Of a DNA stretch of 64,000 nt, positions 5,115 through 60,669 are shown in pieces. The DNA is taken from contig CAVRJI010000002.1 in NCBI GenBank assembly GCA_963721475.1, positions 593,451 through 657,450 on the forward strand. The letters are read 5' to 3'. The position numbers and the translations under genes are program-made. The notes beneath the pieces were generated by a model, which saw only the letters and a program-made list of their open reading frames with translations, had not been told where the DNA came from and searched no databases. The first letter of the stretch is position 1. Each line of letters opens with the position of its first letter. The DNA is from an uncultured bacterium. GTDB lineage: Bacteria > Patescibacteriota > Saccharimonadia > Saccharimonadales > UBA4665.

Positions 5115-6635
5115 TTATTTACACCCAAAAGTCAGGCGCTCTATGGGCGCGTAGTTGTCAGTCAGAATCGTGCCAGTGGGCAATTCCGGTGTTATGTCCT
5201 TGTGTGGGCTATTAGCTTGGAGCCAATCTAGGCGCTTGTTGCTATAGGCTAGGATGATATTTTGGCGCACCGGAACAGCCCAATCCTCGAGCGCAAGAGC
5301 TTTGCTATATCGAAAGGTTTGCCTGTAGGTGCTATTGACGCTACCGAGTAGGGGTTTGCACTGAGCACTTGCCGAAGAAATGGCATTGACGAGCACGACG
5401 CCACCTGGAGCGAGGTTACGCTGGAGTTGGACGGTGTATTCGCTGGTTGTCAGGGCGAAAGGTACGGCTATGTCGCTGTATACGTCGGCAACAATAAGAT
5501 CATATTTCTGCTGGTTGGTATTGAGGAAGGTGCGTGCGTCAGCGGCAATATGCTGAACATTGGGTGCGGGACGATACATGAAATATTGCTGAGCTATAGA
5601 TAGGAGCTGCGGATCGATCTCTACGACATCAATCGACGACTGAGGGTAGGCATTGGCCAGGTGCGCCGGAAGCGTATAGGTGCCGCCGCCCAATACGGCA
5701 ATGCGTTTTTTGGCCGGAGCTTGTTCAGCAACCTTGCTGAGGGCTTTTATATATCCGAAGACTAACTGCTCTGGATGATCGATATCGACGGCTGACTGAC
5801 CACCCTGAGGCCCGTTAGTGAGTATTCGTATGGTGTGCCCTTGGCTGTTTTTGGTATCAATGACTTGGTAGTGTGCCGAAGTGGTGTCGATGTCGATCAC
5901 GCCAGCGGCTCGTGCCTTGCCCGTCCACGGCGCGTAGGCAATCACCGCAAGAGCAACAACTGCGGCGGTGCCGAGAAATCGAATATATTGATCTTCGCGC
6001 GGCATAATGAGCCAGCTTGTGCCGACTAGAACGACACATAGGACTGCAATCGTTTGAACGGAACCGATAAAGCCAAAGAAAAGAAATCCAGCCGCAAAGG
6101 TGCCAACGATACCGCCAATAGCATTCATAGCACTGAGTGAGGCCATCGACCGGCCTGCTTTTTGTACGGAATTTGTATGCAGTCGCACTAAATAGGGGCT
6201 GATTACTCCCAGAGCAAAGCTCGCAGGCATAAATAGAACGAGTGAGGCGACGAGGCCGCGAATGCGGGGATCGTCAAAGGTGTCGCGAATAAAAGTAAGG
6301 AGGCTTTCGGATAGCAAAACGGTACAAATCATGGCCAAGGTCGTGGCGAGTAAAAGCAGAGCAATGTCGGTGTGCTTAACGCGCTTATCGCCGAGAATAC
6401 CACCAGCTGTATAGCCCAAAGACAAGGCGGCAATAATGACACCAATCACGCTTGTCCAGACATACGTTGAACTGCCGATAGTCGGCGCAAGAATGCGCGA
6501 GGCTACCATTTCGTAGGCCATCAGGCAAAAACCAGTGCTAAAGGCTACAATCTCCAAAACACCAACACGGTATTGTTTGAATACACGCAACAGGAAAGTT
6601 AGGAGATGAGACATGATAGATTCCCTAGGCGTCAA
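5115..6635 (-). CDS. polytopic membrane domain fused to a spermidine-synthase-like SAM-fold domain
   Basis: 506 aa. The N-terminal ~210 aa form 6-7 hydrophobic helices. The C-terminal domain has the glycine loop IAVLGGGTYTLP and DLIVADVYSD. Overlaps the upstream GT gene by 11 nt. Confidence 0.7.
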   Translation of the reverse strand: MTPRESIMSHLLTFLLRVFKQYRVGVLEIVAFSTGFCLMAYEMVASRILAPTIGSSTYVWTSVIGVIIAALSLGYTAGGILGDKRVKHTDIALLLLATTLAMICTVLLSESLLTFIRDTFDDPRIRGLVASLVLFMPASFALGVISPYLVRLHTNSVQKAGRSMASLSAMNAIGGIVGTFAAGFLFFGFIGSVQTIAVLCVVLVGTSWLIMPREDQYIRFLGTAAVVALAVIAYAPWTGKARAAGVIDIDTTSAHYQVIDTKNSQGHTIRILTNGPQGGQSAVDIDHPEQLVFGYIKALSKVAEQAPAKKRIAVLGGGTYTLPAHLANAYPQSSIDVVEIDPQLLSIAQQYFMYRPAPNVQHIAADARTFLNTNQQKYDLIVADVYSDIAVPFALTTSEYTVQLQRNLAPGGVVLVNAISSASAQCKPLLGSVNSTYRQTFRYSKALALEDWAVPVRQNIILAYSNKRLDWLQANSPHKDITPELPTGTILTDNYAPIERLTFGCK

Positions 6636-10445: not shown

Positions 10446-11981
10446 ATGGGGGAAGCAGCAAGACAGTGGGGAGAGTATACCTCGGCGCCAGTACAGGAGT
10501 CGGTTGTTTTGCCTGTGGACCAGCTGGCTCATGAGCGATGGTCGCAGCATCGATTCCAGCGGTGGATGGGCGGTATTGTAATGCCGCAGGCCGTTGAAGT
10601 GCCTCCCGTGGGCGACATCGCCAATGATTCGTCGCCAGCAGAGGCACCTGCCCCGTCGACGGTTGCTGAGGTCAGCTTGCGTGAACGTCTCCAGCGTACA
10701 GAACAAGGTGACCCCGAGGCTCAAAAAAGCAGCCGGACCAATATACATACGACAGTCATAGAAACTATCTTTAAGGCTGGCCATATTACACGCACGAGCT
10801 CGGAAATTGCCCAAGATGGCAGTTGGGGGCAATACGGTCAGTCATACGACTCAATCTATCGTAATTCGTTGGAGCGTGGTCGACAGCCGCCACGCATGCT
10901 CAGGCGCACGAAGATCGAAGCGCTTAATATGCACCGCATGGTGGATTGCGCCCGGGCGGGACTGCTTGAAGATAATCATTTTGTGGTTTTTTCGCTTGTC
11001 CACGATGACCAACCAGCAGAGATTATCAAAGAAGACAATTTCTTCACCCCAACCTTGTCGCTGAGTATCCAGGCGACATCTACAGAGCAAGGCCAAGTTG
11101 AAACGCAAACGGCTTTTTTGGCGGGTATGCAGCCATTTGACGAGGATCCATTTAAGCCTGCTAGTGAAAACCTTGCCGGACTCAATGCTGCCATGACCAA
11201 CCGTTTTGATATATCGACTGTTCGTAATATGTACAAGCAATGGGGGATCGCCCACGCAGAAGATATGTCGGTGATTGATCTACTGTCCACGCCGCTTCTT
11301 GTGCCTAAAGACACCATGCCTCATGGCGTTTCCAGCCTTGCCCGCCAGTATGACCAGATTCTAGGCCGTGATACATTTTTTGGCACGTCCAATGAGTCCC
11401 ATGATTATGGTACATTTGCCGATTACTGCGCCACCCGCGAACAACAATATGCATCGATAACGGATGATGTACTCCACGATTTATTGCAAGAGGTTGAATC
11501 TTTTGCGGACGATTTCCAGGCAAACCAGCGCATGCAAGATTTGGTAGATCAATATACTAACCGGCGGGCGACAAAGGATACTTCTATTGATGCTCGCAAC
11601 TTCGGCGCTTTATCAGCTGTATCTATCGAGCAGGCTCGTGTTAGCTTCGCCAGAGGTGATATGTATGCATATTTTATGCATGCCTCGCACGCCCTTGCCA
11701 CGTCCGTAACGACAGCATGTGGTATTAAATCGAGCGCCAAGGGCGGTAGTGGCGACAGCATTTTTGATTCGCTTCGGAGCCTACTTGATCCACAGGACAA
11801 ATCCGATGCGGAAAAAGAGTATGCTGGCCCAGAAAAGGATTCAGTCATGAAGTGCGTTAAATGTCCACTATGTAAAAAGGATGGAGTCGATGCGAACATC
11901 AAGATACATCGGGCTGAGCGTAAAAAAGTGATCACTTGTTCCTCGTGTCGGCAGTCAAAACAGTATGACCTGGCAGGGTAG
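10446..11981 (+). CDS. hypothetical protein with C-terminal CxxC...CxxC zinc-ribbon
   Basis: 511-aa uninterrupted ORF with no TM helix. The C-terminus reads CVKCPLCKK-x19-CSSCRQ. The start is uncertain; in-frame ATGs further downstream are possible. Confidence 0.65.
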   Translation: MGEAARQWGEYTSAPVQESVVLPVDQLAHERWSQHRFQRWMGGIVMPQAVEVPPVGDIANDSSPAEAPAPSTVAEVSLRERLQRTEQGDPEAQKSSRTNIHTTVIETIFKAGHITRTSSEIAQDGSWGQYGQSYDSIYRNSLERGRQPPRMLRRTKIEALNMHRMVDCARAGLLEDNHFVVFSLVHDDQPAEIIKEDNFFTPTLSLSIQATSTEQGQVETQTAFLAGMQPFDEDPFKPASENLAGLNAAMTNRFDISTVRNMYKQWGIAHAEDMSVIDLLSTPLLVPKDTMPHGVSSLARQYDQILGRDTFFGTSNESHDYGTFADYCATREQQYASITDDVLHDLLQEVESFADDFQANQRMQDLVDQYTNRRATKDTSIDARNFGALSAVSIEQARVSFARGDMYAYFMHASHALATSVTTACGIKSSAKGGSGDSIFDSLRSLLDPQDKSDAEKEYAGPEKDSVMKCVKCPLCKKDGVDANIKIHRAERKKVITCSSCRQSKQYDLAG

Positions 11982-14138: not shown

Positions 14139-15611
14139 GTGATGAATAACTCTGACCGCAGCGGTCGCTCTCTGGACTATCTCGATCTCCGGCAGACTAA
14201 CTATCTCTACCTGCCCGAAGCAAAACCGCCGAGTGTGGCGGATTGTGCCCGACGCCTGCAGGTTTACGTGTCACCGCATGCACCAGTCGATGTGCCATAT
14301 GATAATAATCCGAGCCGCTATGTGGAGTATGTCCGTAAGCGAGTAGTGGAGTCTAGGTGGAGCACGCACATCTATTCAGAGACTGGCCGACATTACCGCT
14401 CCTCGCGCCACTGGGTTGATTATGACCAGGCCCGGCCGCTCGATCCTGTCATGCAGTATTGGTACGATTCTAACAGGGAAGAAGTAGCGGATATTAGACA
14501 GGGTCGAAATATCGAAGAGGACTTCTTTAAGGTGAGATATTTGCCGACATTCTCGACAATGGTCCGTACTGTCGCCCAGGCACCGCGAATAATGGCTGAC
14601 ATGCGGGCCGACCATTACCGCGACCAAGTTGCGCGGGGTATCCCCCAGAACCGCGAGATGCTTGATTCAGCCGTCAGACGGGGCGAATATACCAGTGCCA
14701 ATATCGCGGAAGCCACTCGCATAGTCGAGGAGTTTGACTACCGCATGTCTATGCCTGATTTTTGGCGTCTGGAAACCGACCAGCAGGATGAGATTATCGG
14801 GCATATCGGTAGGCAATGCCTCTATCTTTGGGATGCTGCCGCACGCTATGGCACAGTTGCACTCCTCGCCAGAGAGCGGGTCTTCCCTCACCCAATTAAC
14901 CAACTGGATGAGGTGCTATCGAGCGCCGATGGCCGAGAAAGGGCGCCAGAGGTTTTTGAAGCCTTCATGGCTAATCCAGCGGTATTTGCCAATATGTTGA
15001 AGCAAACCAGAGATGGTGAGCAGCAAGAGGTGCAGGGAGCTGATTTCCGAAAACTCGTACGTGGAATGGAGGTTGGTGAGGTGCTGCACCTTTCCGAGGG
15101 GTCAACTCCAATTGCGCGCAGGCAAATCCGCCAAGTGTTCGGAGAGTTTTCGATGATCGCCGCTCACCAGATTCGGTCCATGCACGAATACCCTGGGAAG
15201 GTAAAATTCGCGAATTGGCACACCGAAGAAACAGATATTGCCGAGCAACTTATTGGCAATCACTACGGCAATATTACGAACCTCCGCGTCCAGCGGGGAG
15301 CAGTGGATGATGCCAGTGCCAAGCGATTAGTGTACCAATGGAGGCCGCAATTTGTACCACTCGAGACCATACGTCGTTATATTGCGTCGGCTGATTTTAA
15401 GGTGGGTGGCCGTACTGTTCCAGCAGCTATAGAGTTTGCGGTATTTATGCGTCACAGTTCGCATGGTCCGCAATTGAATAAGGCAGTCATGGCACCGCGT
15501 GGTACGGACCAATACGAACGGTTGATGTACGAAGCGAGCAGCAAAGCACGTAACAGATATTATTGGAATGTTCTTCACGCCCGCCGAACATCACACGGAC
15601 CTAAACGCTAG
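14139..15611 (+). CDS. hypothetical protein (orphan, soluble)
   Basis: 490-aa uninterrupted ORF with a GTG/ATG start pair at 14139/14142. I recognise no motif. Confidence 0.65.
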   Translation: MMNNSDRSGRSLDYLDLRQTNYLYLPEAKPPSVADCARRLQVYVSPHAPVDVPYDNNPSRYVEYVRKRVVESRWSTHIYSETGRHYRSSRHWVDYDQARPLDPVMQYWYDSNREEVADIRQGRNIEEDFFKVRYLPTFSTMVRTVAQAPRIMADMRADHYRDQVARGIPQNREMLDSAVRRGEYTSANIAEATRIVEEFDYRMSMPDFWRLETDQQDEIIGHIGRQCLYLWDAAARYGTVALLARERVFPHPINQLDEVLSSADGRERAPEVFEAFMANPAVFANMLKQTRDGEQQEVQGADFRKLVRGMEVGEVLHLSEGSTPIARRQIRQVFGEFSMIAAHQIRSMHEYPGKVKFANWHTEETDIAEQLIGNHYGNITNLRVQRGAVDDASAKRLVYQWRPQFVPLETIRRYIASADFKVGGRTVPAAIEFAVFMRHSSHGPQLNKAVMAPRGTDQYERLMYEASSKARNRYYWNVLHARRTSHGPKR

Positions 15612-25015: not shown

Positions 25016-26143
25016 CTAAGCGTTAAATAGGCCATATTCGTAGACCGCGACAAGTGCAGCATGCTGCTGGCTCTGTAAGTTACTGATAGGCTGCTCCTTG
25101 GTGGTCTGAAGCACGGGGCATTTAAACATGACGCCCCACAAGGCCTCTTCTAGATAGGATATATCATCGTCAGTACCAGGCCATTTGCCGGGCCACCTCT
25201 TATGTCCAAAAACGCGCTGAGCAGCTGCTTTCGCGCTTTGCTTTCGAAGTGCAAAATTGTCCTCTGTCTCGTCGGGTAATCTGCTCACTGGTATTTCGCT
25301 ATACAGATGCCTGCCTGCATATGGACCTTCTGAAATGCGTGTAATCTCTCCTTCAAGATCGGCAATCCCTACTGGTAGCAGATCGGAAATGTTTTGAGCG
25401 GCTCTCTTAAGTCCCAAGTAACTTAACTCATGAGCAACTTGCAATTTTTTCTCTGGGCTATAGCCGCCCGTAAGTGGATCGTCGTTGACTAGCATGGCTA
25501 GCTCAGGGGCAGTGGATGTAAGGGCGCCGCCATTCATTGCAGCAGCGAGATCATCAGCAGTTGCTGGGGCACCATGCAGCTCTACGCCGTATGTATCTAC
25601 AAAGAAGCGGCTCAGCTGTTTATTGCGGTCTGAAGCATGGGAGAACCACTGATGTGGCTTAATGACCGCTTCAGCCCCCGCCCACACGTAGCCACTACTA
25701 AGCCATTCGCCAAAAATATCACCTGGTAAGGGATCTTCGAGATCGGCGGAATCTTCGACGTTGATGGGGTCTTCGAAGTGTATTCCCGTTTTGTAGCGCG
25801 CATCAAGGCCAGCACCTTCGACCATGTATGTATGTTGCGCATCAACACAGAACTTACTAAGGCTATAGCGCTCAAGCTTTACGAGCAGAGCGGTTTCCCT
25901 CTTGCTCCTATCATCTAGTTGGCTAAGCGTTTTTCGTTCGAGCTCGTCATCGCGCGTGTAGTCAAGGACGTGGCTGTTTACCTTGGCGCCAAGCTTCTGT
26001 AGTAACGCTTGTTGAACAGCAAAAGGGTCGTTCTGAAGTTCGTCGCCCAGCCCTTGGGACAGTGCTGCAGCTGTCTCGTGAAAAGCAGTAATAATTGTTG
26101 GTTTTGGGATCTCAAGTAGGCTTGACATCCACGTACCATACAA
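25016..26143 (-). CDS. hypothetical protein (orphan, acidic, soluble)
   Basis: 375-aa uninterrupted ORF with no recognised motif. Confidence 0.6.
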   Translation of the reverse strand: MYGTWMSSLLEIPKPTIITAFHETAAALSQGLGDELQNDPFAVQQALLQKLGAKVNSHVLDYTRDDELERKTLSQLDDRSKRETALLVKLERYSLSKFCVDAQHTYMVEGAGLDARYKTGIHFEDPINVEDSADLEDPLPGDIFGEWLSSGYVWAGAEAVIKPHQWFSHASDRNKQLSRFFVDTYGVELHGAPATADDLAAAMNGGALTSTAPELAMLVNDDPLTGGYSPEKKLQVAHELSYLGLKRAAQNISDLLPVGIADLEGEITRISEGPYAGRHLYSEIPVSRLPDETEDNFALRKQSAKAAAQRVFGHKRWPGKWPGTDDDISYLEEALWGVMFKCPVLQTTKEQPISNLQSQQHAALVAVYEYGLFNA

Positions 26144-33569: not shown

Positions 33570-34691
33570 ATGTATTCTTTCGCAGATGCTTCACAAGATT
33601 ATCGTATTGCCTCACACCAGGCAGAGACTTTTAACCAAAGCCATGACCTTGGGATTATCTTGCCTGCTGATCGCACCGCCAAGGATGCACAGTCAGCCCT
33701 TGAGGCTATAGGCCAGCCGGGGTTGGTCTATGTAGAGATGCCATCCTATGAGCAAGAGCGTGTCAGCTCGAATGCCGAAGGGCCCGTAGTCCATTGTGCG
33801 GGTAACGTGCGGGGCCCGGGCGTACCAACCCTCCTACAGGAAATGCCTTACAGCAGTTTGTATTTCCGCGAGCTGCGGCGCCAAGAACCTGTTCATTTTG
33901 CCGCCATGGAGGCCAACGTTCTTGAAGCAGTCAATGGTACGCCGATTGAGTATACGACTCATCTGTTCTTTGGCTTGCTAGCTCGAGAATGCCTATTTGT
34001 GCCCGGTGACGCTCACGATGGGCAACTGCTGCCTTCTGCGGTTCAGGAATTGCCATGGCGCATTAATCGGGCAGGGCGATTGGATATACTCAATCCGCAT
34101 ATATTGTCCAGTGAAATCCAAAGGCAAGTAAGAACTGCGGTTAATGACCGACACGACATGAACCGTTTCCGCGACGTAGCCCTCGTGAACAATATTGTCG
34201 AGTTAGAAGACAGACCTTACCGCCAAGCGATGGGGGTTGCAGCAGACGCAGTATTACCAAGCTATATTATTCGGGGTAACGCCCATAGGCGAAGCCTAGA
34301 AGCTACGTTAACTGACCAGCGCCTTGACTACAAACTATGCCTATACGATCCGCCAAAAGATGGCACAGTGATTGCTGCCACGTTTGCACCCAATCAACAT
34401 ACCGACGATGAATATGTTCGAACAATCACCAACCTACTCCAAACGATGCTCCAGGCCAAAGAAGTAAGCCCCTTCCATGCCGAGGCTTGCGAGCCACTCG
34501 CTGAGAAAATGCGGAAAATCGGCGTTCTTGCTAGCCGGTCACCCGCAATCCTTGATAGGGTTAGAGAGCTGCTGATAGCGAGCCACGAAAAGCAGGACGG
34601 CGGGCGACTGAGAGCCTGGGCGCAGCGAAAACGCTTTAAAAAGATGGCGATGGCCGTACTCCAGATGTGTGATCAAGAGCAGCCAATCTAA
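33570..34691 (+). CDS. hypothetical protein (orphan)
   Basis: 373-aa uninterrupted ORF with AAAGGA upstream and no recognised motif. Confidence 0.6.
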   Translation: MYSFADASQDYRIASHQAETFNQSHDLGIILPADRTAKDAQSALEAIGQPGLVYVEMPSYEQERVSSNAEGPVVHCAGNVRGPGVPTLLQEMPYSSLYFRELRRQEPVHFAAMEANVLEAVNGTPIEYTTHLFFGLLARECLFVPGDAHDGQLLPSAVQELPWRINRAGRLDILNPHILSSEIQRQVRTAVNDRHDMNRFRDVALVNNIVELEDRPYRQAMGVAADAVLPSYIIRGNAHRRSLEATLTDQRLDYKLCLYDPPKDGTVIAATFAPNQHTDDEYVRTITNLLQTMLQAKEVSPFHAEACEPLAEKMRKIGVLASRSPAILDRVRELLIASHEKQDGGRLRAWAQRKRFKKMAMAVLQMCDQEQPI

Positions 34692-53693: not shown

Positions 53694-55352
53694 ATGGGGA
53701 GTATACTAAAAATAGCTAAACCCTCACATTATTATTTATTACGCATGCAAGAAAAACCCAAACCGCGAGCTAAAAAAAGAATCTCCCTCGGTAGTGCTGC
53801 TGTTCTATTGATGACTACGACCTTGGTTGGTCAATTGCTGGGCTTTATGCGCACCAAGCTGGTCAATGCAAACTTTGATCCATACGGCGCACAGAGCACC
53901 GATGCATATTTTGCCGCGTTTACTATTCCTGATCTATTCTTCTATACGCTGGCAGCGGGTGCTCTTGGCGTTGCATTCATGCCATTTCTGGCTGATCGTC
54001 TGCATAAAGGTGACCGGCGCGGTATGTGGGAGCTCTCAACAAGCTTACTTAACCTGTTAAGTATATTAATGCTGTTCGTGGCGGTCATCATCTTTGCTTT
54101 TGCACGACCTCTGATCAGCCATATCGTTGCACCAAACTTAAGCCCAGAGCAGCTCGATAATGCTGTGTTTATCATGCGACTGCTTGCGCTAAACCCCTTC
54201 TTCTTTACTATTTCCGGTATCTTGAGCAGTACACAGCAAACACTGGGCCGGTTCTTCTTCTTTGCTATCGCTCCTCTGGTGTATAACCTGTCGATTATTG
54301 TGAGTATCTTTGTATTCCGCGGAACAGACATGGGGCTTAAGGGGTTGGGAATCGGCGCGCTGGTTGGCGGCATCTTGCAGGTATTAATCGTGGCCTGTGG
54401 CTTATTCGGAACGAAATTCTATTGGCGGCCTAAGATTGCGTGGCGTAGTGACGACTTCCGTACGATCCTCAAACAGTTGCCCCCGCGGTCTCTGGACCAG
54501 GGGATCGACCAGGTGCAGGGTATCGTGGAAACAAACTTGGCCAACCGCCTGGGGACAGGATTCGTTAGCTTCTACAACAATGCTTATACAATGCACATGG
54601 CGCCAATCCTTTTGCTTGGTACGGCAATTTCAACAGCAGCTTTCCCGCAACTCAATAAGCGATTATCCCAAGGACGTCCCGACTTATTCCGCGCGGATTT
54701 CTTACGCATCTTACGATTACTCATCTGGCTGGTTGTGCCGGTTGTCATCGTCTGTTTCTTTACCCGTGGCTATCTGGCTCGACTTATCTTCTCTCGTAAT
54801 GCCCCTGAGATTGCCCTGATTTTTGGATTTCTGACTGTGGCCATTTTCTTTCGTACGGTATACGCGCTTATCTCGCGCTGGTTCTATGCCCAAAAGGACA
54901 GCAAAACGCCGCTATTTGTCTCGATCTTTACAATTGCCCTGAACATCGGCTTGGCAACGTACCTATCCAAGCCCGCAAACTATGGTGTTGGTGGCTTGGC
55001 TATGGCCCAGTCCATTGTGGCGGCAGTCGAGGTTGTCATTCTGAGCATTATTATGGTTATTCGTGATCCAAAACTGCTTAACATCGAATTTGGCAGTGGC
55101 CTTTTGCGAATGGTCTCGGTAACTGGCTTCACCGTGCTGACGGCCTTCATTGCCATTACCTTCTATCCACTTGCTGTTACGGACATCGGATTTATTACAC
55201 TGGGAACAAAACTATTCTTTATCTCGGCCGCCACAATGTCGGTCTATGTCCTGATATCCGGGCTCTTTGGCCTCGAAGAAGCGCGCCCGATCTTTAAATG
55301 GATCAAGCGTATTATTACGAAGCCACTCCGCATCCAGGATTGGAGCGCTTAG
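53694..55352 (+). CDS. murJ: lipid II flippase MurJ (MviN family)
   Basis: 552 aa with ~14 TM helices and a MurJ-like N-terminus (TLVGQLLGFMRTKLVNANFG...). An alternative start at 53745 is possible. Confidence 0.8.
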   Translation: MGSILKIAKPSHYYLLRMQEKPKPRAKKRISLGSAAVLLMTTTLVGQLLGFMRTKLVNANFDPYGAQSTDAYFAAFTIPDLFFYTLAAGALGVAFMPFLADRLHKGDRRGMWELSTSLLNLLSILMLFVAVIIFAFARPLISHIVAPNLSPEQLDNAVFIMRLLALNPFFFTISGILSSTQQTLGRFFFFAIAPLVYNLSIIVSIFVFRGTDMGLKGLGIGALVGGILQVLIVACGLFGTKFYWRPKIAWRSDDFRTILKQLPPRSLDQGIDQVQGIVETNLANRLGTGFVSFYNNAYTMHMAPILLLGTAISTAAFPQLNKRLSQGRPDLFRADFLRILRLLIWLVVPVVIVCFFTRGYLARLIFSRNAPEIALIFGFLTVAIFFRTVYALISRWFYAQKDSKTPLFVSIFTIALNIGLATYLSKPANYGVGGLAMAQSIVAAVEVVILSIIMVIRDPKLLNIEFGSGLLRMVSVTGFTVLTAFIAITFYPLAVTDIGFITLGTKLFFISAATMSVYVLISGLFGLEEARPIFKWIKRIITKPLRIQDWSA

Positions 55353-55364
55353 TGCCCAGAAGCA

Positions 55365-55392
55365 AAAGATCCGCCACATGCGGCGGATCTTT
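55365..55392. terminator. bidirectional intrinsic terminator at the left edge of the island
   Basis: Stem aaagatccgcc/ggcggatcttt between the convergent murJ and the small - strand ORF. Confidence 0.75.
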
Positions 55393-55416
55393 CTGATTAC
55401 TCCATCTTGGAATGAT

Positions 55417-55707
55417 CTAGTAGGCTTTGACGGTCGCCAGACAAGGGCTTCCCTGTAGGCTGCGGAAGTGATAGGTGAGCCGGTACTCATCTCCATCTGA
55501 CTGTCGCTCGAGAGAGGTGTCTACATCGACGTCACCGTCAAAATCAACTCTCAACTGAGGTTCGGGGATCTGCTTTTCAAAAATACCGACAACAAAGCGA
55601 GTGGTTGTATCTGCTTCAATGACCACCTGACCGAGTATTTCTGGATAATCTTCTTCCAAAATCGTGTCGTTGTGTTGTAAAATTGCTGAATCGCTTGTTA
55701 TGCTCAT
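55417..55707 (-). CDS. small acidic protein, partner 1 of the duplicated module
   Basis: 96 aa with AGGAGA 11 nt upstream of the ATG. About one third identical to 57168-57464 over the C-terminal 54 aa, by hand alignment. Shared motif EY(R/K)LTYH(F/L)...Q..(S/N)PC. Confidence 0.6.
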   Translation of the reverse strand: MSITSDSAILQHNDTILEEDYPEILGQVVIEADTTTRFVVGIFEKQIPEPQLRVDFDGDVDVDTSLERQSDGDEYRLTYHFRSLQGSPCLATVKAY

Positions 55708-55826
55708 GCGCTGAATGTCTCCTATTAGATGATCTGTATCTTCTTAGATTGAGGCTACGGTGATGGTTTGTGTGTTTAATCACATACGTCTGTGATGTGT
55801 ACTGGCGTTGAAAAATATTAAATGAG

Positions 55827-55845
55827 TTGTTACTCTAGGTAACAA
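55827..55845. promoter_or_regulatory. inverted repeat TTGTTAC-N5-GTAACAA in divergent promoter region 1
   Basis: 7-bp perfect arms. A third GTTAC half-site lies at 55858-55862. Confidence 0.45.
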
Positions 55846-55890
55846 GGGAAGAAAACTGTTACTAGTAGTTGCTTGCAGCTGCTATTTTTG

Positions 55891-55916
55891 ATGATACATG
55901 TCTATTTCGGAACATG
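55891..55916 (+). promoter_or_regulatory. conserved upstream motif ATGATACA-N8-TCGGAACATG (copy 1)
   Basis: The same 8-mer, spacing and 10-mer recur at 57559-57584, upstream of the paralogous gene. Ends 22 nt before the ATG at 55939. Confidence 0.55.
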
Positions 55917-55938
55917 CAAATAATTATTACAACTATAG

Positions 55939-57171
55939 ATGAAATATTATAAAAATACTGAGCTCGCTACTATATATCACGTTTCTGAAAAGTCCGTCCG
56001 CAACTGGATCGAGGCTACGCAAAAAGGGAAACTCGACCTAGAGCTTCACGAAATCAACGACCGCCACTACATAGCAAACACCACAAAAAATCTCGACATC
56101 ATTAAAGGTATGGTTGAAGAACGCAAAAAATTCACCAATACTCGTGCGCATAAGGTGGTGAGCCCCAAGCCAGAGTTCTATAAGCTGTACAACGAAAAAC
56201 AGATAATCGATATCATAACGAACATTGATACCCATCGCGAAATACCTCTGCAGTATAGCTACTTTAACGGTGGTGCGACTTATTGGCAGAGCTATATTGA
56301 AAAGCTGTTACATGAGAATACTCCTAACCTTCTCACAAGTACGATTGGCCTTTTGCAAGTTAACCAAAGCTACATCGATACGATCACGCACGGCAAAAAA
56401 GTTAATATTTGCGACTTGGGCGTCGGTGAAGGAACCCCAGCCAAAGGCTTGCTCTCGCATTTACTAGAAGAAGATCGGCTAAACCGCTATATGGGCATGG
56501 ACTTCAGCAGAGATATGCTCAAGATCGCCGAAGGTAACGTGCGTAAGTGGTTTGGTGATGATTTCAACTTTGAGGCATACACAATGGACCTTAACTATGA
56601 CCGCTTTGCTGACGCACTGCGAAAAGATATGTTCCATGGTGAGGAAGCTGACCATCCCTTGAATCTCATTCTTTTATTGGGCGGCACCCTAACTAACAAT
56701 AAGGACCCTGACCTAGCTCTGAGAATGATTAATGCAAGTATGGGTAAGGATGACTATCTGATATATACTAAACGGCTAGACACCGAGTCATCAAGGCGCT
56801 ACTTCGACTTCAATATTGCCAGTGATGGCCAGCTTTTGACTCCACGCCACATGCTCGTCCCTGACCTTCTTAACATAGATCCCTCATTATATGAAGTTGA
56901 GCAGTTCTTTAACGAGGAGAAAAAAGCAAGAACTATTCAGCTGAGACTAAAGGTTGATCTAACAATAGATATTACCACTGATAATCTATGCAAAAAGATC
57001 AATCTTAGGAAAGGTGATGTCGTCCTGCTCTGGCGCTCATGGCATCAAAGTGCGATGGATGTCATTAATCAGTTCGAACGAAATGGGTTCGACCTTTTGC
57101 AGGCAAGTATTACGGAGAATAAAGAGTACTTGCTCACAATCTCAAAAGTTAAGATTGGCGCTAATATCTAG
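55939..57171 (+). CDS. HTH domain fused to EgtD-like (Methyltransf_33-type) SAM-dependent methyltransferase, copy 1
   Basis: 410 aa. N-terminal HTH-like ELATIYHVSEKSVRNWI. Then a motif order as in EgtD-type enzymes: ICDLGVGEGTPAKGLL, RYMGMDFSRDML, ILLLGGTLTNN, YTKRLDT, RRYFDF, KGDVVLLWRSWHQS, NGFDLL, EYLLTISKV. Confidence 0.7.
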   Translation: MKYYKNTELATIYHVSEKSVRNWIEATQKGKLDLELHEINDRHYIANTTKNLDIIKGMVEERKKFTNTRAHKVVSPKPEFYKLYNEKQIIDIITNIDTHREIPLQYSYFNGGATYWQSYIEKLLHENTPNLLTSTIGLLQVNQSYIDTITHGKKVNICDLGVGEGTPAKGLLSHLLEEDRLNRYMGMDFSRDMLKIAEGNVRKWFGDDFNFEAYTMDLNYDRFADALRKDMFHGEEADHPLNLILLLGGTLTNNKDPDLALRMINASMGKDDYLIYTKRLDTESSRRYFDFNIASDGQLLTPRHMLVPDLLNIDPSLYEVEQFFNEEKKARTIQLRLKVDLTIDITTDNLCKKINLRKGDVVLLWRSWHQSAMDVINQFERNGFDLLQASITENKEYLLTISKVKIGANI

Positions 57172-57464
57172 CTTATTTCGCATTTGCGAATAACTACTCG
57201 ACAAGGGTTATCCTGAAAATTCTGGAGATGATAGGTAAGCTTGTATTCACCAGTATCTTCAGTCCGTACGAGAGTTGCATTAACGATCGCATTTTTAGGA
57301 AAAACTTCTAAATGAAAGTTTGGTTGCGGGAAGTCATCCTCATAAATTCCCAAGACAACACTTGTCATTTCTCCAGAGTCTATGTCAACCCTATCGACGA
57401 TTACAGAATCGGAACCATCCGATAAAAGCGGATCATTCGCAATAGTTCTTGTATATGTGTCCAT
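57168..57464 (-). CDS. small acidic protein, partner 2 of the duplicated module
   Basis: 98 aa with GGGGAGA upstream. Paralog of 55417-55707. Its stop overlaps the stop of the convergent 55939-57171 gene within CTAG. Confidence 0.6.
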   Translation of the reverse strand: MDTYTRTIANDPLLSDGSDSVIVDRVDIDSGEMTSVVLGIYEDDFPQPNFHLEVFPKNAIVNATLVRTEDTGEYKLTYHLQNFQDNPCRVVIRKCEIS

Positions 57465-57545
57465 GCCTCGATCTCCCCAGATTGAAGTTAAAGAATAAAA
57501 GTGGTATCTTTTAGTAACTGCCTTTCAGGTAGCATCATACCAGAA

Positions 57546-57560
57546 ATTGCTAATAGCAAT
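57546..57560. promoter_or_regulatory. palindrome ATTGCTA-A-TAGCAAT in divergent promoter region 2
   Basis: 7-bp perfect arms, immediately upstream of and overlapping the conserved motif copy 2. Confidence 0.4.
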
Positions 57561-57584
57561 GATACAGAAAAAAATCGGAACATG
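57559..57584 (+). promoter_or_regulatory. conserved upstream motif ATGATACA-N8-TCGGAACATG (copy 2)
   Basis: Identical 8-mer and 10-mer with identical spacing to copy 1. Ends 16 nt before the ATG at 57601. Confidence 0.55.
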
Positions 57585-57600
57585 TCAATAACTTTTAGCT

Positions 57601-58839
57601 ATGAAATATTTTAAGAATTCAGAACTAGCTCGACAATATAACATCTCGGAAAAGACAGTACGCAATTGGATACTTGGGGCTGATGCTGGGAAAAACGAGC
57701 TGGAGATTTTTGTCGATGATCGTAGTAGAGCCTACATTGCCGATACGGTGAGGAATGAGCTAATCATCGAGAAGATGACTATTCTGGGGAAGAAGTACCG
57801 AAATAGTAAGACGCACAAAGTGCTCCATGTCTCAGATGAGCTTTATAAATACTATACCCATGGGCAGATACAAGACATTGTTATGCATCTTGATAAAAGT
57901 GCTGAGTTTCCCTTCCAATATTCACACATGGGGCCACGCGGTGTAGAGATTAACGACGGATATTACAGGCGGCTAACACAAGACAATAAACCAAACTCAC
58001 AGGCTTTTACGGTTCAGGCAATAAATGAAAACATATCCTTGATTAAATCCTATATGCAAACTTCCCAAAGCATCAATATTGTCGAAATTGGTGGTCGCAC
58101 AGGCCTCATTGCAAAATCATTGATATCTATCTTTTTGGTTGATGATTACCTTGCTAGGTATGTTGACGTGGATGTGAGTAGTGACATGGTAAGGTGTGCA
58201 CAGACGACGGTGCGAGATCACTACGGTGACGGCATGCACTTCCAGGGATACGTTCGAGATATTCACAAGCAGCAGATTGACGATATCTTATTCGATGCGC
58301 GAATAGATAACAATCTTGCTGACAATTTAGTTATCTTTGCAGGGAGTACTTTATTCAACCTTGCTTCCCCGAAGCAAGCCTTAAACAACATCTCAAATAG
58401 TCTCGCTTCACGAGATCTCTTTATACTTACGATGAAGCTGGACTCTTCGCTAGCACGAAGATACTTTGATTTTGGTCCGAAGTTCGAGAACAAACTCCTC
58501 TCACCCGGAGAGAAATACATGCTAGATTTGTTGAATATCGATGAAGACTGCTGCGAGATCGAGCAGATTTATGATGAAGAATTACGAATAAGAAAAGCAC
58601 AAGCTCGGTTGAAATACGACATAACTCTCGTCTTCAACATCAAAGGCAAAGAAAAACGAATCGATTTTTCCAAAGGCGAGGCCATATTGCTTTGGCGATA
58701 TTGGCACAAAAATCTCGAAGAAATCGAGGATATGATGCGCGAAGCGGGCTTTACGGTGATGCAGGCCACCAAATCACCCGATGAGCAGTTTGGCATGATT
58801 ATTGCACGAGTGAAATCACAGCGCCCGCGCCTCACCTAG
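57601..58839 (+). CDS. HTH domain fused to EgtD-like (Methyltransf_33-type) methyltransferase, copy 2
   Basis: 412 aa, collinear with copy 1 at roughly 30% identity by eye. Motifs: ELARQYNISEKTVRNWI, IVEIGGRTGLIAKSL, RYVDVDVSSDMV, VIFAGSTLFNL, TMKLDS, RRYFDF, KGEAILLWRYWHKN, AGFTVM, QFGMIIARV. Confidence 0.7.
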   Translation: MKYFKNSELARQYNISEKTVRNWILGADAGKNELEIFVDDRSRAYIADTVRNELIIEKMTILGKKYRNSKTHKVLHVSDELYKYYTHGQIQDIVMHLDKSAEFPFQYSHMGPRGVEINDGYYRRLTQDNKPNSQAFTVQAINENISLIKSYMQTSQSINIVEIGGRTGLIAKSLISIFLVDDYLARYVDVDVSSDMVRCAQTTVRDHYGDGMHFQGYVRDIHKQQIDDILFDARIDNNLADNLVIFAGSTLFNLASPKQALNNISNSLASRDLFILTMKLDSSLARRYFDFGPKFENKLLSPGEKYMLDLLNIDEDCCEIEQIYDEELRIRKAQARLKYDITLVFNIKGKEKRIDFSKGEAILLWRYWHKNLEEIEDMMREAGFTVMQATKSPDEQFGMIIARVKSQRPRLT

Positions 58840-58884
58840 CCAGTCGCTGTGATTTCTGGTCTACCTCTGTTATAATAGGGTTTA

Positions 58885-60669
58885 ATGAATCAGTCTCAAA
58901 TTAGAAACTTTTGTATTATTGCGCATATTGATCACGGTAAGAGCACTTTGGCCGATCGCTTACTGGAGATTACGGGCACCGTCGAAAAGCGTCAAATGAA
59001 AGAGCAGTTGCTCGATCGTATGGACCTTGAGCGCGAACGCGGCATTACCATTAAGCTCCAACCGGTACGCATGGATTACAGGGGTCACCAGCTCAATTTG
59101 ATTGATACTCCTGGCCACGTAGACTTTAGCTATGAGGTCTCCCGTAGCCTCGAAGCATGTGAGGGTGCTATTTTGGTGGTGGACGCCACACAGGGCATGC
59201 AGGCCCAGACTTTGGCCAATGTATATCTTGCGATAGCTGCTGATCTCACCATTATTCCCGTTCTCAACAAGATTGATTTGCCAGCTGCTGATGTTGAGCG
59301 CGTTAGTAAGGAAATTATAAGTCTGCTTGGCTGCAAGCCAGAGGATATTTTGCACATCTCTGCCAAAACAGGGCAGGGTGTTGATGCTGTTCTGGAACGA
59401 ATTGTCCAGGATGTGCCCGCCCCAAGCGGTACGCATCAGGCTCCAACCCGCGCCTTGATTTTTGATAGCTACTACGACGATTATCGTGGTGTTATTTTGT
59501 ACGTCCGCGTTGTTGATGGTGAGATAAAAAAAGGTGCGTCAATCAAGATGATGGCGACCCAGGCACCTGGTATTGCTTTGGAAGTCGGGGCACTCAAGCC
59601 CGATATGACGGCAAATGCCGCATTGGCAACCGGCGAAATTGGCTACATCGTGACCAACCTCAAGAGCACCCGCGAAGCGCGTGTTGGTGATACAGTGACA
59701 TTGACCTCTCTCATCGAAACAGGCATTGCTGCTTTGCCTGGCTACAAGGATGTAAAGCCGTTTGTATATGCTGGCTTTTTCCCTGACAGTAATGAAAATT
59801 ACCAGTTGCTTAAGGATGCTGTCGAAAAACTCAGCTTGAGTGATTCAGCATTACAATTCGAACCCGAGAACTCTCCGGTACTAGGTTTTGGTGTGCGTAT
59901 TGGCTTCCTCGGCTTACTCCACATGGATATCGTCCGTGAGCGTTTGGTGCGCGAGTACAATCTTGACCTTGTTGTTACCAATCCGTCGACAGATTATCAG
60001 ATTACTCTTATGAATGGGCAAGAAGTGGACATAAAGAGCGCAGCCGATCTGCCAGATCCGGCAAAGATCGAAGCGATTCGTGAGCCTTGGATCAAGGGTG
60101 AGATCGTGGTCCCTCAGGATTATGTTGGTGCAGTGATTCAGCTTATCGTGAGTAAGCGTGGCTTGCAGAAGAATCTGAGCTATATTGACGAGCGCACGCT
60201 CGTCAGTTTTGAGGCCCCTCTGGCTAACTTGTTAACTGATTTTTATGACCAGCTCAAGAGTTTAACATCGGGCTACGGCTCGTTTAACTACGAGCTAGAT
60301 GACTATCGTGTCGAGGACCTGGTACGGCTTGATTTTTATGTAGCAGGCGAACGCGTCGATGCTTTGGCTATTATGGTCCATCGTTCCGAAGCGCCCTATC
60401 TTGGCCGCGAAATCGTGCAAAAACTGAAAGAAGTGATTCCTCGTCAACAATTCCCAGTAGCGTTGCAGGCGGCAATTGGCGGTCGTTTTATCGCGCGTGA
60501 AGACATCAGCGCTTACCGCAAGGATGTGACGACGGGCCTGTACGGTGGAGACGTTTCTCGCAAGAAAAAAGTTCTTGCCAAGCAGAAAAAGGGTAAGGCT
60601 CGTATGAAGCGTTTTGGCAAGATTGATATTCCAGCCGAAGCATTTACAGTCATGCTCAAGCGTGATTAG
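58885..60669 (+). CDS. lepA: elongation factor 4 (LepA)
   Basis: 594 aa with the GTPase G1 motif IIAHIDHGKSTLADR, DTPGHVDF and NKID, plus a LepA-specific C-terminal domain. TGtTATAAT lies 8 nt upstream of the ATG. Confidence 0.95.
   Translation: MNQSQIRNFCIIAHIDHGKSTLADRLLEITGTVEKRQMKEQLLDRMDLERERGITIKLQPVRMDYRGHQLNLIDTPGHVDFSYEVSRSLEACEGAILVVDATQGMQAQTLANVYLAIAADLTIIPVLNKIDLPAADVERVSKEIISLLGCKPEDILHISAKTGQGVDAVLERIVQDVPAPSGTHQAPTRALIFDSYYDDYRGVILYVRVVDGEIKKGASIKMMATQAPGIALEVGALKPDMTANAALATGEIGYIVTNLKSTREARVGDTVTLTSLIETGIAALPGYKDVKPFVYAGFFPDSNENYQLLKDAVEKLSLSDSALQFEPENSPVLGFGVRIGFLGLLHMDIVRERLVREYNLDLVVTNPSTDYQITLMNGQEVDIKSAADLPDPAKIEAIREPWIKGEIVVPQDYVGAVIQLIVSKRGLQKNLSYIDERTLVSFEAPLANLLTDFYDQLKSLTSGYGSFNYELDDYRVEDLVRLDFYVAGERVDALAIMVHRSEAPYLGREIVQKLKEVIPRQQFPVALQAAIGGRFIAREDISAYRKDVTTGLYGGDVSRKKKVLAKQKKGKARMKRFGKIDIPAEAFTVMLKRD

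Follow-up and report, generated by a model that had tools for sequence, protein, structure and literature searches.

HTH-fused EgtD-fold methyltransferases of Saccharibacteria, their divergent small partner genes and a conserved upstream box: a candidate autoregulatory system

Closest described systems and the locus

Several described proteins unite catalysis with recognition of a DNA sequence. BirA and RbkR combine catalysis and sequence-specific repression in one polypeptide (PMC6391492, PMC5397151), and the methyltransferases M.SsoII and M.Ecl18kI consist of an N-terminal DNA-binding region of ~70 amino acids (aa), a flexible linker and a methyltransferase domain, and have a divergent partner and an intergenic operator (PMC3978073, PMC2760811). 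In Ecl18kI, face-to-face interfering promoters are controlled by the helix-turn-helix (HTH) of the methyltransferase (PMC2760811; domain layout in PMC3978073). Here, we describe a locus from a 64,000-nucleotide stretch of an uncultured bacterium of the Saccharimonadia (GenBank assembly GCA_963721475.1, contig CAVRJI010000002.1, positions 593,451 to 657,450; this whole stretch is called the window hereafter), in which two large proteins, each with an HTH-like domain fused to a methyltransferase domain of the EgtD fold, are encoded divergently from two small acidic proteins. Analysis of the sequence and of its relatives leads us to propose, with moderate confidence, that the large protein is an autoregulatory enzyme-repressor controlling both itself and its small partner.

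The enzymatic half of this protein is best understood by reference to EgtD, in which D113 is the S-adenosylmethionine (SAM)-site aspartate and the G161/T163/N166 loop holds the alpha-amino group of the substrate; Tyr56, Tyr206 and Ser284 contact the carboxylate of histidine, Asn166 its alpha-amino group, and Glu282 forms part of the imidazole subsite (PMC8593015). The large proteins share with EgtD the fold, the Asp113 counterpart of the SAM site and the Gly161/Thr163/Asn166 loop, but the identity is only 12-15%; they carry at the N-terminus an additional HTH domain that, together with its linker, spans about 85 residues, have no EgtB/EgtC/EgtE context and are found in genome-reduced episymbionts. 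With other Methyltransf_33 enzymes, such as EasF-type proteins and aromatic amino-acid betaine synthases, there is homology at the family level, and alpha-amino N-methylation is plausible for the large protein; the match to the EasF model TIGR03439 is nevertheless weak (17.8 bits against a cut-off of 205), and the locus carries the fused HTH and is without ergot or prenyltransferase context.

With M.SsoII and M.Ecl18kI the locus shares a regulatory layout, as predicted here from sequence. The likeness is confined to regulatory logic, since those systems pair a C5-DNA methyltransferase with a restriction endonuclease, whereas the window pairs an EgtD fold with a beta-sandwich protein of 96-98 aa. 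BirA and RbkR belong to a different enzyme class, and in the DNA examined the only target detected for the window's system is the module's own promoter region. The proposed autoregulation has its analogues in the divergent-partner control of M.SsoII/M.Ecl18kI and in BirA-type 'trigger enzymes'. The EgtD fold and the principle of joining an enzyme to its own repressor are already known; the combination of an HTH with Methyltransf_33, the small-protein family and the box described below are new, and the literature searched gave no description of an HTH-Methyltransf_33 fusion or of the small-protein family.

The interval between MurJ (53694-55352) and LepA (58885-60669) comprises four open reading frames (ORFs) in two pairs, each with a small gene on the minus strand and a large gene on the plus strand, and the gene calls of a public assembly of identical DNA are exactly these four:

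55417-55707, minus strand: small A, ORF of 96 aa, acidic, pI 4.2
55939-57171, plus strand: large A (HTH-methyltransferase A), ORF of 410 aa
57168-57464, minus strand: small B, ORF of 98 aa, acidic, pI 4.4
57601-58839, plus strand: large B (HTH-methyltransferase B, the diverged paralogue), ORF of 412 aa

The original prediction, made from the letters of the window, had recognized this arrangement, including the acidic character of the small proteins and the overlap of the stop codons of large A and small B in a single CTAG, which is present at 57168-57171.

The HTH-methyltransferase family and its upstream box

The first search for relatives of the large proteins retrieved at least 598 clusters, almost all of 403-421 aa and with 99-100% query coverage, and the named sources were Saccharibacteria, Saccharimonadales or Patescibacteria. 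A scan of reference genomes gave 45 loci, nearly all of them in metagenome-assembled genomes (MAGs) of Saccharibacteria; individual loci, including those from metagenomes, are cited below by handles beginning with L. Because the relatives are almost uniformly full-length, the fusion of an HTH with a methyltransferase is the norm of a class-wide family and not a local peculiarity, and the earlier view of it as an unusual architecture has to be given up.

Both large proteins pass the gathering cut-off of the Pfam family PF10017 (Methyltransf_33; 48.3 bits for copy A and 55.2 bits for copy B, cut-off 23), which is also precomputed on nearly all of the 120 relatives listed. The AlphaFold2 model of large A, built with 73 sequences (pLDDT 91.4, pTM 0.80), has the two-domain EgtD fold, that is, a Rossmann methyltransferase core and a substrate-lid beta-sheet with C-terminal strands E318-E368. 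In this model residues 1-62 form an HTH with a beta-hairpin, residues 63-67 a low-confidence linker, and residues ~87-405 the EgtD-fold methyltransferase. In a Foldseek comparison with the PDB the top fifteen places went to EgtD chains (E 3e-18 to 1e-15; next fold 1.7e-13), with a target TM of 0.79 for the top chain and up to 0.80 among them, and profile alignment (hhalign) with true mycobacterial EgtD gave a probability of 95.8%. The EgtD-like fold that had been proposed from motif order is thereby borne out.

The same profile alignment equates D188, G248, T250 and N253 of the family with D113, G161, T163 and N166 of EgtD. SAM motif I of copy A reads DLGVGEG, and among the 73 sequences conservation at D159, G161, G163 and D188 is complete or reaches at least 90%. 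Motif I of copy B, at residues ~159-166, reads EIGGRTG, with arginine for the second glycine, and the B copies of L001 (7671) and L104 (3967) carry the same change as E/D-I-G-G-R-T-G. This Gly-to-Arg replacement suggests weakened SAM binding in B-type proteins and perhaps a mainly regulatory role.

The residues that contact histidine in EgtD are, by comparison, poorly kept. Tyr206 aligns with an invariant phenylalanine (Phe289), and in the gapless register of KG..ILLWR.WH against AGEEMLTEVSCKF the position of Glu282 is taken by a nearly invariant tryptophan (Trp365) and that of Ser284 by a variable residue; LLWR.WH stands in place of the 'TEVS' strand of EgtD, just as had been read from the sequence. 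Asn166 corresponds to the conserved N253, and the counterpart of Tyr56 is not alignable. Against the NCBIfam EgtD equivalog TIGR03438 (cut-off 290.9) copy B scores 33.5 bits and copy A gives no match, its NCBIfam score of 18.1 bits being to Hen1. Domains of EgtB/OvoA, EgtC, EgtE and EgtA were found neither in window ORFs of at least 340 aa nor among the conserved neighbours of the 45 loci, in agreement with the original prediction, which had noted that such partner genes are absent. Since the histidine-specific contacts are lost, the large proteins are almost certainly relatives of EgtD by fold, and neither EgtD itself nor histidine methyltransferases, and the label 'L-histidine N(alpha)-methyltransferase' that public databases attach to their relatives is probably an over-annotation. 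Its correction would keep ergothioneine-type chemistry out of metabolic reconstructions where it does not belong.

The N-terminal domain comprises helices at residues 6-13 and 17-28, a beta-hairpin at 36-46 and a third helix at 49-61, and is followed by the low-confidence hinge. The first 70 residues of the protein have a pI of 9.3-9.5, compared with 5.5-5.9 for the remainder. Sub-threshold matches to HTH_23, HTH_28 and HTH_17 occur in 21-22 of 22 family members and to MerR in 12. The segment VSEKSVRNW is almost invariant, with S16, V20, R21, N22 and W23 invariant or nearly so. Model, charge and profile matches agree on a separate, basic, HTH-like domain, in line with the HTH-like segment of the original prediction, and the HTH-like strings then quoted are present.

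A few loci depart from the taxonomic or structural rule. In the distant locus L056:1035-3765 (GCA_030269515.1) a radical SAM gene follows the methyltransferase and the HTH lies in a separate frame, through a frameshift or sequencing error. The locus is also carried by L004, L014, L026, L032 and L039, whose MAGs are labelled Limnocylindria, Pristimantibacillus, Bacillota, Nevskiaceae and Parcubacteria. L014, L026, L032 and L039 have the gene order UvrD ... TPI-PGK that is typical of Saccharibacteria, and they probably represent mis-binned contigs; in L004 only the methyltransferase and its C5 partner (see below) stand amid otherwise unique genes, and its assignment is less clear.

Upstream of nearly all genes of the family lies a box with the consensus ATGATACgt.t....tTCGGAACATGTCAAta and fixed spacing. 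In the window it occurs twice, once per module, within the following set of predicted regulatory features:

55891-55920, minus strand: box A, ATGATAC-N9-TCGGAACA-TGCAAA; reads as a sigma-70-type promoter TTTGCA-18-TATCAT directed toward small A; 8-bp core at 55907-55914
57559-57588, minus strand: box B, ATGATAC-N9-TCGGAACA-TGTCAA; reads as TTGACA-18-TATCAT (11/12 consensus positions) directed toward small B; core at 57575-57582
55808-55836, plus strand: predicted extended -10 promoter of methyltransferase A, TTGAAA, 17-nt spacer with TGn, TACTCT; start near 55843, leader of about 95 nt
57482-57510, plus strand: predicted extended -10 promoter of methyltransferase B, TTGAAG, 17-nt spacer with TGn, TATCTT; predicted start near 57517
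55828-55844, no strand: dyad TGTTAC-N5-GTAACA, which overlaps the -10 of the promoter of methyltransferase A; a possible additional operator or a hairpin of the leader

Matches to the box with at most two mismatches numbered 56 in 592 kb of fetched DNA, and 45 of them are followed, 25-82 nt downstream, by the start of a methyltransferase gene. Scanning metagenomes for the exact pattern yielded 65 loci, 60 of which have an HTH-methyltransferase start within 150 nt and four of which are cut by contig ends; the remaining match, L097 on a high-GC contig, has no methyltransferase and is compatible with chance. A wider regulon was accordingly not seen, the window containing only two sites and the metagenomes only this one match without a methyltransferase. 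Tandem copies separated by short gaps, with no ORF on the opposite strand, still retain the box, which therefore belongs to the methyltransferase gene itself, and no conserved mini-ORF was found between tandem copies that have no small gene. One-mismatch box-like sites were also observed about 2 kb downstream of the methyltransferase at L012:8034-8046 and L021:7991-8003, where no second copy is present; they may be remnants of a B copy that has since been lost, or further sites on which the regulator acts.

The minus-strand starts of the small-gene promoters are predicted near 55884 and 57552. Alignment of 16 intergenic regions of the sub-clade revealed, for the opposite strand, a block TTGAAA-N14-TGnTAnnnT whose invariant columns are the TTG of the -35, the TG and T-A-n-n-n-T. 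The predicted promoters of each module would thus face each other, and the core would fall within the promoter of the small gene and also within the leader of the methyltransferase. The dyad is paired in 80% of cells across the 16 sequences, with weak covariation (two double-change cells; a score as high as the observed one arose in 26 of 500 shuffles), and the B copies have no left arm. A conserved hairpin or dyad directly upstream of the ATGATAC box was rejected, the median folding-energy (MFE) z-score being -0.50 against -0.55 in a control region (p = 0.38).

The core of the box follows the recognition helix in a comparison restricted to methyltransferase genes that had not been selected through the motif. 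Proteins with the canonical helix SEK[STA][VI]RNW have the core TCGGAACA, with at most one mismatch, in 41 of 42 boxes; with other helices it occurs in 0 of 12 boxes (2-6 mismatches), both hexamers being kept. Proteins that have a variant helix in common also have a variant core in common: TAA(A/C)TCAT in L044 and L055, GGGAAACA in L047 and L054, and (C/T)(T/C)TGATCA in L019-B and L033-B. The L044-type helix is SLTAVAKW and its core TAAATCAT; a near-identical variant of the L044 box was noted in the metagenome locus L055. An HTH that reads the 8-bp core would be expected to produce just such co-variation, which suggests that it does so. Both paralogues of the window have the canonical helix and the canonical core, so that cross-regulation between the two modules is possible.

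Divergent partners and age of the modules

The small acidic proteins match no Pfam, NCBIfam or PADLOC family and give a single weak match in PHROGs. The AlphaFold2 model of small B (pLDDT 81.5) is a six-stranded beta-sandwich in which residues 1-19 are disordered, and no significant fold relatives were found in the PDB (best E 0.31) or the BFVD (best E 0.009). A word-index search recovered four relatives, and an exhaustive HMMER search seeded with both proteins recovered 103 representatives, nearly all standalone, of 83-110 aa and with a median pI of 4.9; G-x-Y-E...P-x-P and G-(D/E)-Y-x-L-x-Y...N are their common motifs. These proteins make up a new family of standalone proteins, for which the model predicts a beta-sandwich fold.

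The association of this family with the methyltransferase is close in one direction. A divergent adjacent HTH-methyltransferase is present in 23 of 25 small-protein loci, as could be hoped from the pairing seen in the window; of the other two, one has no room for it and the other, L044, is split by an insertion sequence (IS) element. Seven distant members, only 25-35% identical to those of the window, all have a divergent HTH-methyltransferase that the profile matches from position 1. In the opposite direction the pairing is rare: C5, an unrelated small gene, faces the methyltransferase in 54 of the 65 motif-selected loci, compared with six for the acidic protein, which is consequently not the general partner of the family. 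As most methyltransferases face C5, the acidic protein is not required for the core function of the family, and on this distribution it appears to be the small acidic protein that depends on the methyltransferase, not the reverse.

C5, a protein of 110-170 aa with the motifs ALYYLP..YKLV and SPEALASAIL, only faintly resembles GT1 glycosyltransferases, in their C-terminal half (E 0.014), and its gene occurs on the opposite strand directly upstream of the methyltransferase in L004-L043 and L057-L121 (e.g., L021:5420-5848). A third unannotated family, C20, of about 150-190 aa and without Pfam match, separates tandem copies of the methyltransferase in a different clade (L008:7214-7750, L021:7217-7714, L024:7233-7826, L036:5064-5522 and L054:1442-2119); in L054 it directly follows the small acidic protein gene. 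That C5 and C20 are distant homologues of the window's small proteins was ruled out by hhalign probabilities of 0.1-0.4% (0.1% for C5).

L044:2532-7224 lies on a 725-kb RefSeq contig with the actinomycete label Kibdelosporangium aridum (NZ_FWXV01000004.1) and carries an HTH-methyltransferase (48% identical) together with the small acidic protein. A DDE transposase and a hydrolase separate the two, IS4/5, Fic and AbiEii-like ATPase genes lie around them, and the local GC is about 0.60. An epibiont could have passed the pair to a host-type organism, or the contig could be foreign.

The two modules of the window are, as judged by comparison of their sequences and gene order, an old duplication of one small/large unit. 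Large A and large B are 37% identical over their entire lengths (E 2e-87), so that the collinearity noted at first holds and the identity of roughly 30%, estimated by eye, was too low; small A and small B are 33% identical (E 3e-15). Second methyltransferase copies occur in 18 of 116 loci and form deep, long branches in a neighbour-joining tree, with window-B sister to L001-B. The four-gene arrangement, including the tail-to-tail junction, recurs in L001, L104 and L106, from which it follows that the module was duplicated as a unit long ago, as had been proposed.

The interval has a GC content of 0.421, compared with a mean of 0.498 in 537 same-sized windows elsewhere in the window (sd 0.0105, minimum 0.470; z = -7.3). 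A sliding-window check thus upholds the lower GC reported earlier by hand count. Third-position GC (GC3) of the large genes is 0.50 and 0.48, against 0.51-0.54 for the flanking MurJ, LepA and FtsH, and the shortfall resides mostly in codon positions 1-2 and in AT-rich intergenic DNA (0.35-0.36). In all 45 reference loci the methyltransferase gene is lower in GC than its surroundings (median -7 points). Low GC is a compositional trait of the family and not a mark of recent import.

Two housekeeping contexts predominate, UvrD-[small gene< >MT]-TPI-PGK in about 30 loci and MurJ-[small gene< >MT]-LepA in the window, L001-L003, L005, L009 and L045 (MT, methyltransferase; arrowheads give the direction of transcription); among the conserved neighbours UvrD/PcrA is confirmed by Pfam, and TPI, PGK, pyruvate kinase and KsgA are assigned by appearance only. 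Recent horizontal acquisition is contradicted by the family-wide GC deficit, the near-normal GC3 and this synteny, and the term 'island', insofar as it meant acquired DNA, does not fit a family that is vertically conserved in Saccharibacteria.

Proposed autoregulation, rival explanations and remaining features of the window

In the mechanism that we favour, with the moderate confidence stated at the outset, the HTH of the large protein would bind the 8-bp core TCGGAACA within the spacer of a strong promoter, TTGACA-18-TATCAT, aimed at the small gene. As the core also lies in or beside the promoter or leader of the methyltransferase itself, the bound protein would repress the small gene and tune its own synthesis, by steric exclusion or promoter interference. 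Occupancy of the methyltransferase domain by a ligand, either the substrate or SAM, may modulate DNA binding. The enzyme would N-methylate a small substrate other than histidine, probably one that resembles an amino acid, and the small acidic beta-sandwich protein would be a dedicated accessory of a subfamily, acting as binding partner, modulator or substrate carrier. The two modules of this genome could cross-regulate, and copy B, with its altered SAM motif I, may be mainly regulatory.

Several observations weigh against autoregulation by such an enzyme-repressor. The HTH stays below every Pfam gathering cut-off, with best single-member E-values of 1e-4 to 6e-4, and the core lacks the clearly palindromic form that a dimeric HTH would usually call for. 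The association of helix and core is significant (Fisher p = 4e-11) in a test that ignores phylogeny and in which only roughly 6-8 helix types are independent. Conservation of the box might reflect nothing more than promoter function, although the co-variation of core and helix would then go unexplained. The prevalence of the unrelated C5 opposite the methyltransferase also sits uneasily with a scheme built on the acidic partner, and the alignment of the carboxylate-binding Tyr206 with an invariant phenylalanine means that the substrate might not be an amino acid.

Among the alternatives, the one that we take most seriously, while still thinking it rather unlikely, is a two-protein modification system in which the small protein is the substrate of the methyltransferase or its stoichiometric inhibitor or activator, and the HTH is only autoregulatory; it is partly compatible with the enzyme-repressor. 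The small family occurs almost only beside HTH-methyltransferases (the 23 of 25 loci and all seven distant members), the small/large pair has been duplicated and retained as a unit in four genomes, alpha-amino groups are what EgtD-type enzymes methylate (PMC8593015), and the disordered N-terminal tail of ~19 residues could enter the active site. Specific N-terminal methylation is, however, difficult to reconcile with N-termini that are not conserved in the small family; moreover, the EgtD fold forms a closed small-molecule pocket, and most HTH-methyltransferases face C5 and have no acidic partner. A transcription factor that only senses ligands, its methyltransferase domain binding SAM or a metabolite without catalysis, seems to us improbable, and more plausible for copy B than for the family at large: the motif I arginine is found in copy B and in its L001 and L104 orthologues, and the evidence of box and helix indicates strong selection on the regulatory half, but the A-type copies retain motif I as DxGxGxG together with D188, G248, T250 and N253, (nearly) invariant in the 73 sequences, and the enzyme fold, some 320 residues long, keeps about 50% identity throughout the class.

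The other three readings we hold to be far less probable. An acquired defence or addiction island, similar to a toxin-antitoxin or restriction-modification system with the small protein as antidote or effector, would agree with the low GC of the interval, with the M.SsoII-type layout of an HTH-methyltransferase facing a small gene, and with the IS elements, Fic and AbiEii-like ATPase around the L044 pair. It is nonetheless very unlikely, as the four proteins of the locus have no PADLOC match at E <= 1 and only one weak match in PHROGs (E 0.0014), the interval contains no mobility genes (no integrase or transposase, as already stated in the original prediction, which had left a defence or addiction role open), housekeeping synteny is kept in many genomes, the GC deficit is a family trait with GC3 near normal, and the fold is that of EgtD and not of a DNA methyltransferase. 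The same fold speaks against an HTH-targeted methyltransferase whose substrate is DNA or RNA at the box or close to it, an idea invited by the fusion of a DNA-binding domain to a methyltransferase and by the conservation of a cognate DNA site: EgtD fills the first fifteen Foldseek ranks, the model includes the substrate-lid beta-sheet, the alpha-amino-binding asparagine is conserved and no DNA methyltransferase family is matched in Pfam or NCBIfam, which makes this reading slightly less probable again. The poorest prospects of all are those of a genuine EgtD, that is, a histidine N-alpha-trimethyltransferase producing hercynine for ergothioneine; Pfam family and fold match EgtD and PGAP-style names on relatives say so, but the equivalog scores, the replacement of Tyr206 by Phe289 and of Glu282 by Trp365, the variable position of Ser284 and the lack of EgtB, EgtC, EgtE, EgtA and OvoA domains in the ORFs and neighbours searched all tell against it.

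Saccharibacteria have genomes of about 1 Mb, do not synthesize amino acids and live on actinobacterial hosts. Retention of the methyltransferase family by nearly all of these reduced genomes, sometimes in two copies, makes it likely that the family matters. A possible, if doubtful, extension of the enzyme-repressor proposal is that the HTH-EgtD-fold protein and its small partner constitute an undescribed, self-regulated methylation system specific to Saccharibacteria, which would make a methylated amino-acid-like metabolite, or modify or load the small protein, with feedback through the HTH on the operator; if true, it could bear on the episymbiotic lifestyle, for example by sensing or altering host-derived amino acids. 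In a phylum that is still poorly understood, the family offers a compact and testable fusion of an enzyme with its own repressor and a predicted operator, in which the natural helix-core variants are ready-made specificity mutants. The analysis also defines a new family of small proteins whose sole known genomic context is the HTH-methyltransferase.

Two further features border the interval:

55365-55392, no strand: hairpin between the convergent murJ and small A genes; inverted repeat with 14-nt arms, 93% complementary, flanked by an A-run and a T-run
58812-58856, no strand: perfect inverted repeat with 12-nt arms GAAATCACAGCG / CGCTGTGATTTC, 21 nt apart, straddling the methyltransferase-B stop (58839), just 5' of the lepA promoter

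The first is likely a bidirectional terminator for murJ and small A, and the second is a possible terminator or insulator. No known RNA family was found in the leaders with Rfam, which returned two sub-threshold matches; one of them, to P9, is accounted for by the murJ hairpin. The extended -10 of lepA, TGTTATAAT at 58868-58876, ends just 8 nt 5' of the ATG, and lepA has no Shine-Dalgarno sequence; both this element and the murJ hairpin were correctly located in the original prediction. Given the short distance and the missing Shine-Dalgarno sequence, lepA may be translated from a leaderless mRNA. The methyltransferase genes of the window are also without an obvious Shine-Dalgarno sequence, in contrast to most family members of other clades. 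Elsewhere in the window, four ORFs of 373-511 aa (10446-11981, 14139-15611, 25016-26143 and 33570-34691) have no Pfam family at E <= 1e-6, and the ORF at 5115-6635 (506 aa) consists of a long unassigned N-terminal region followed by a spermine-synthase-like domain.

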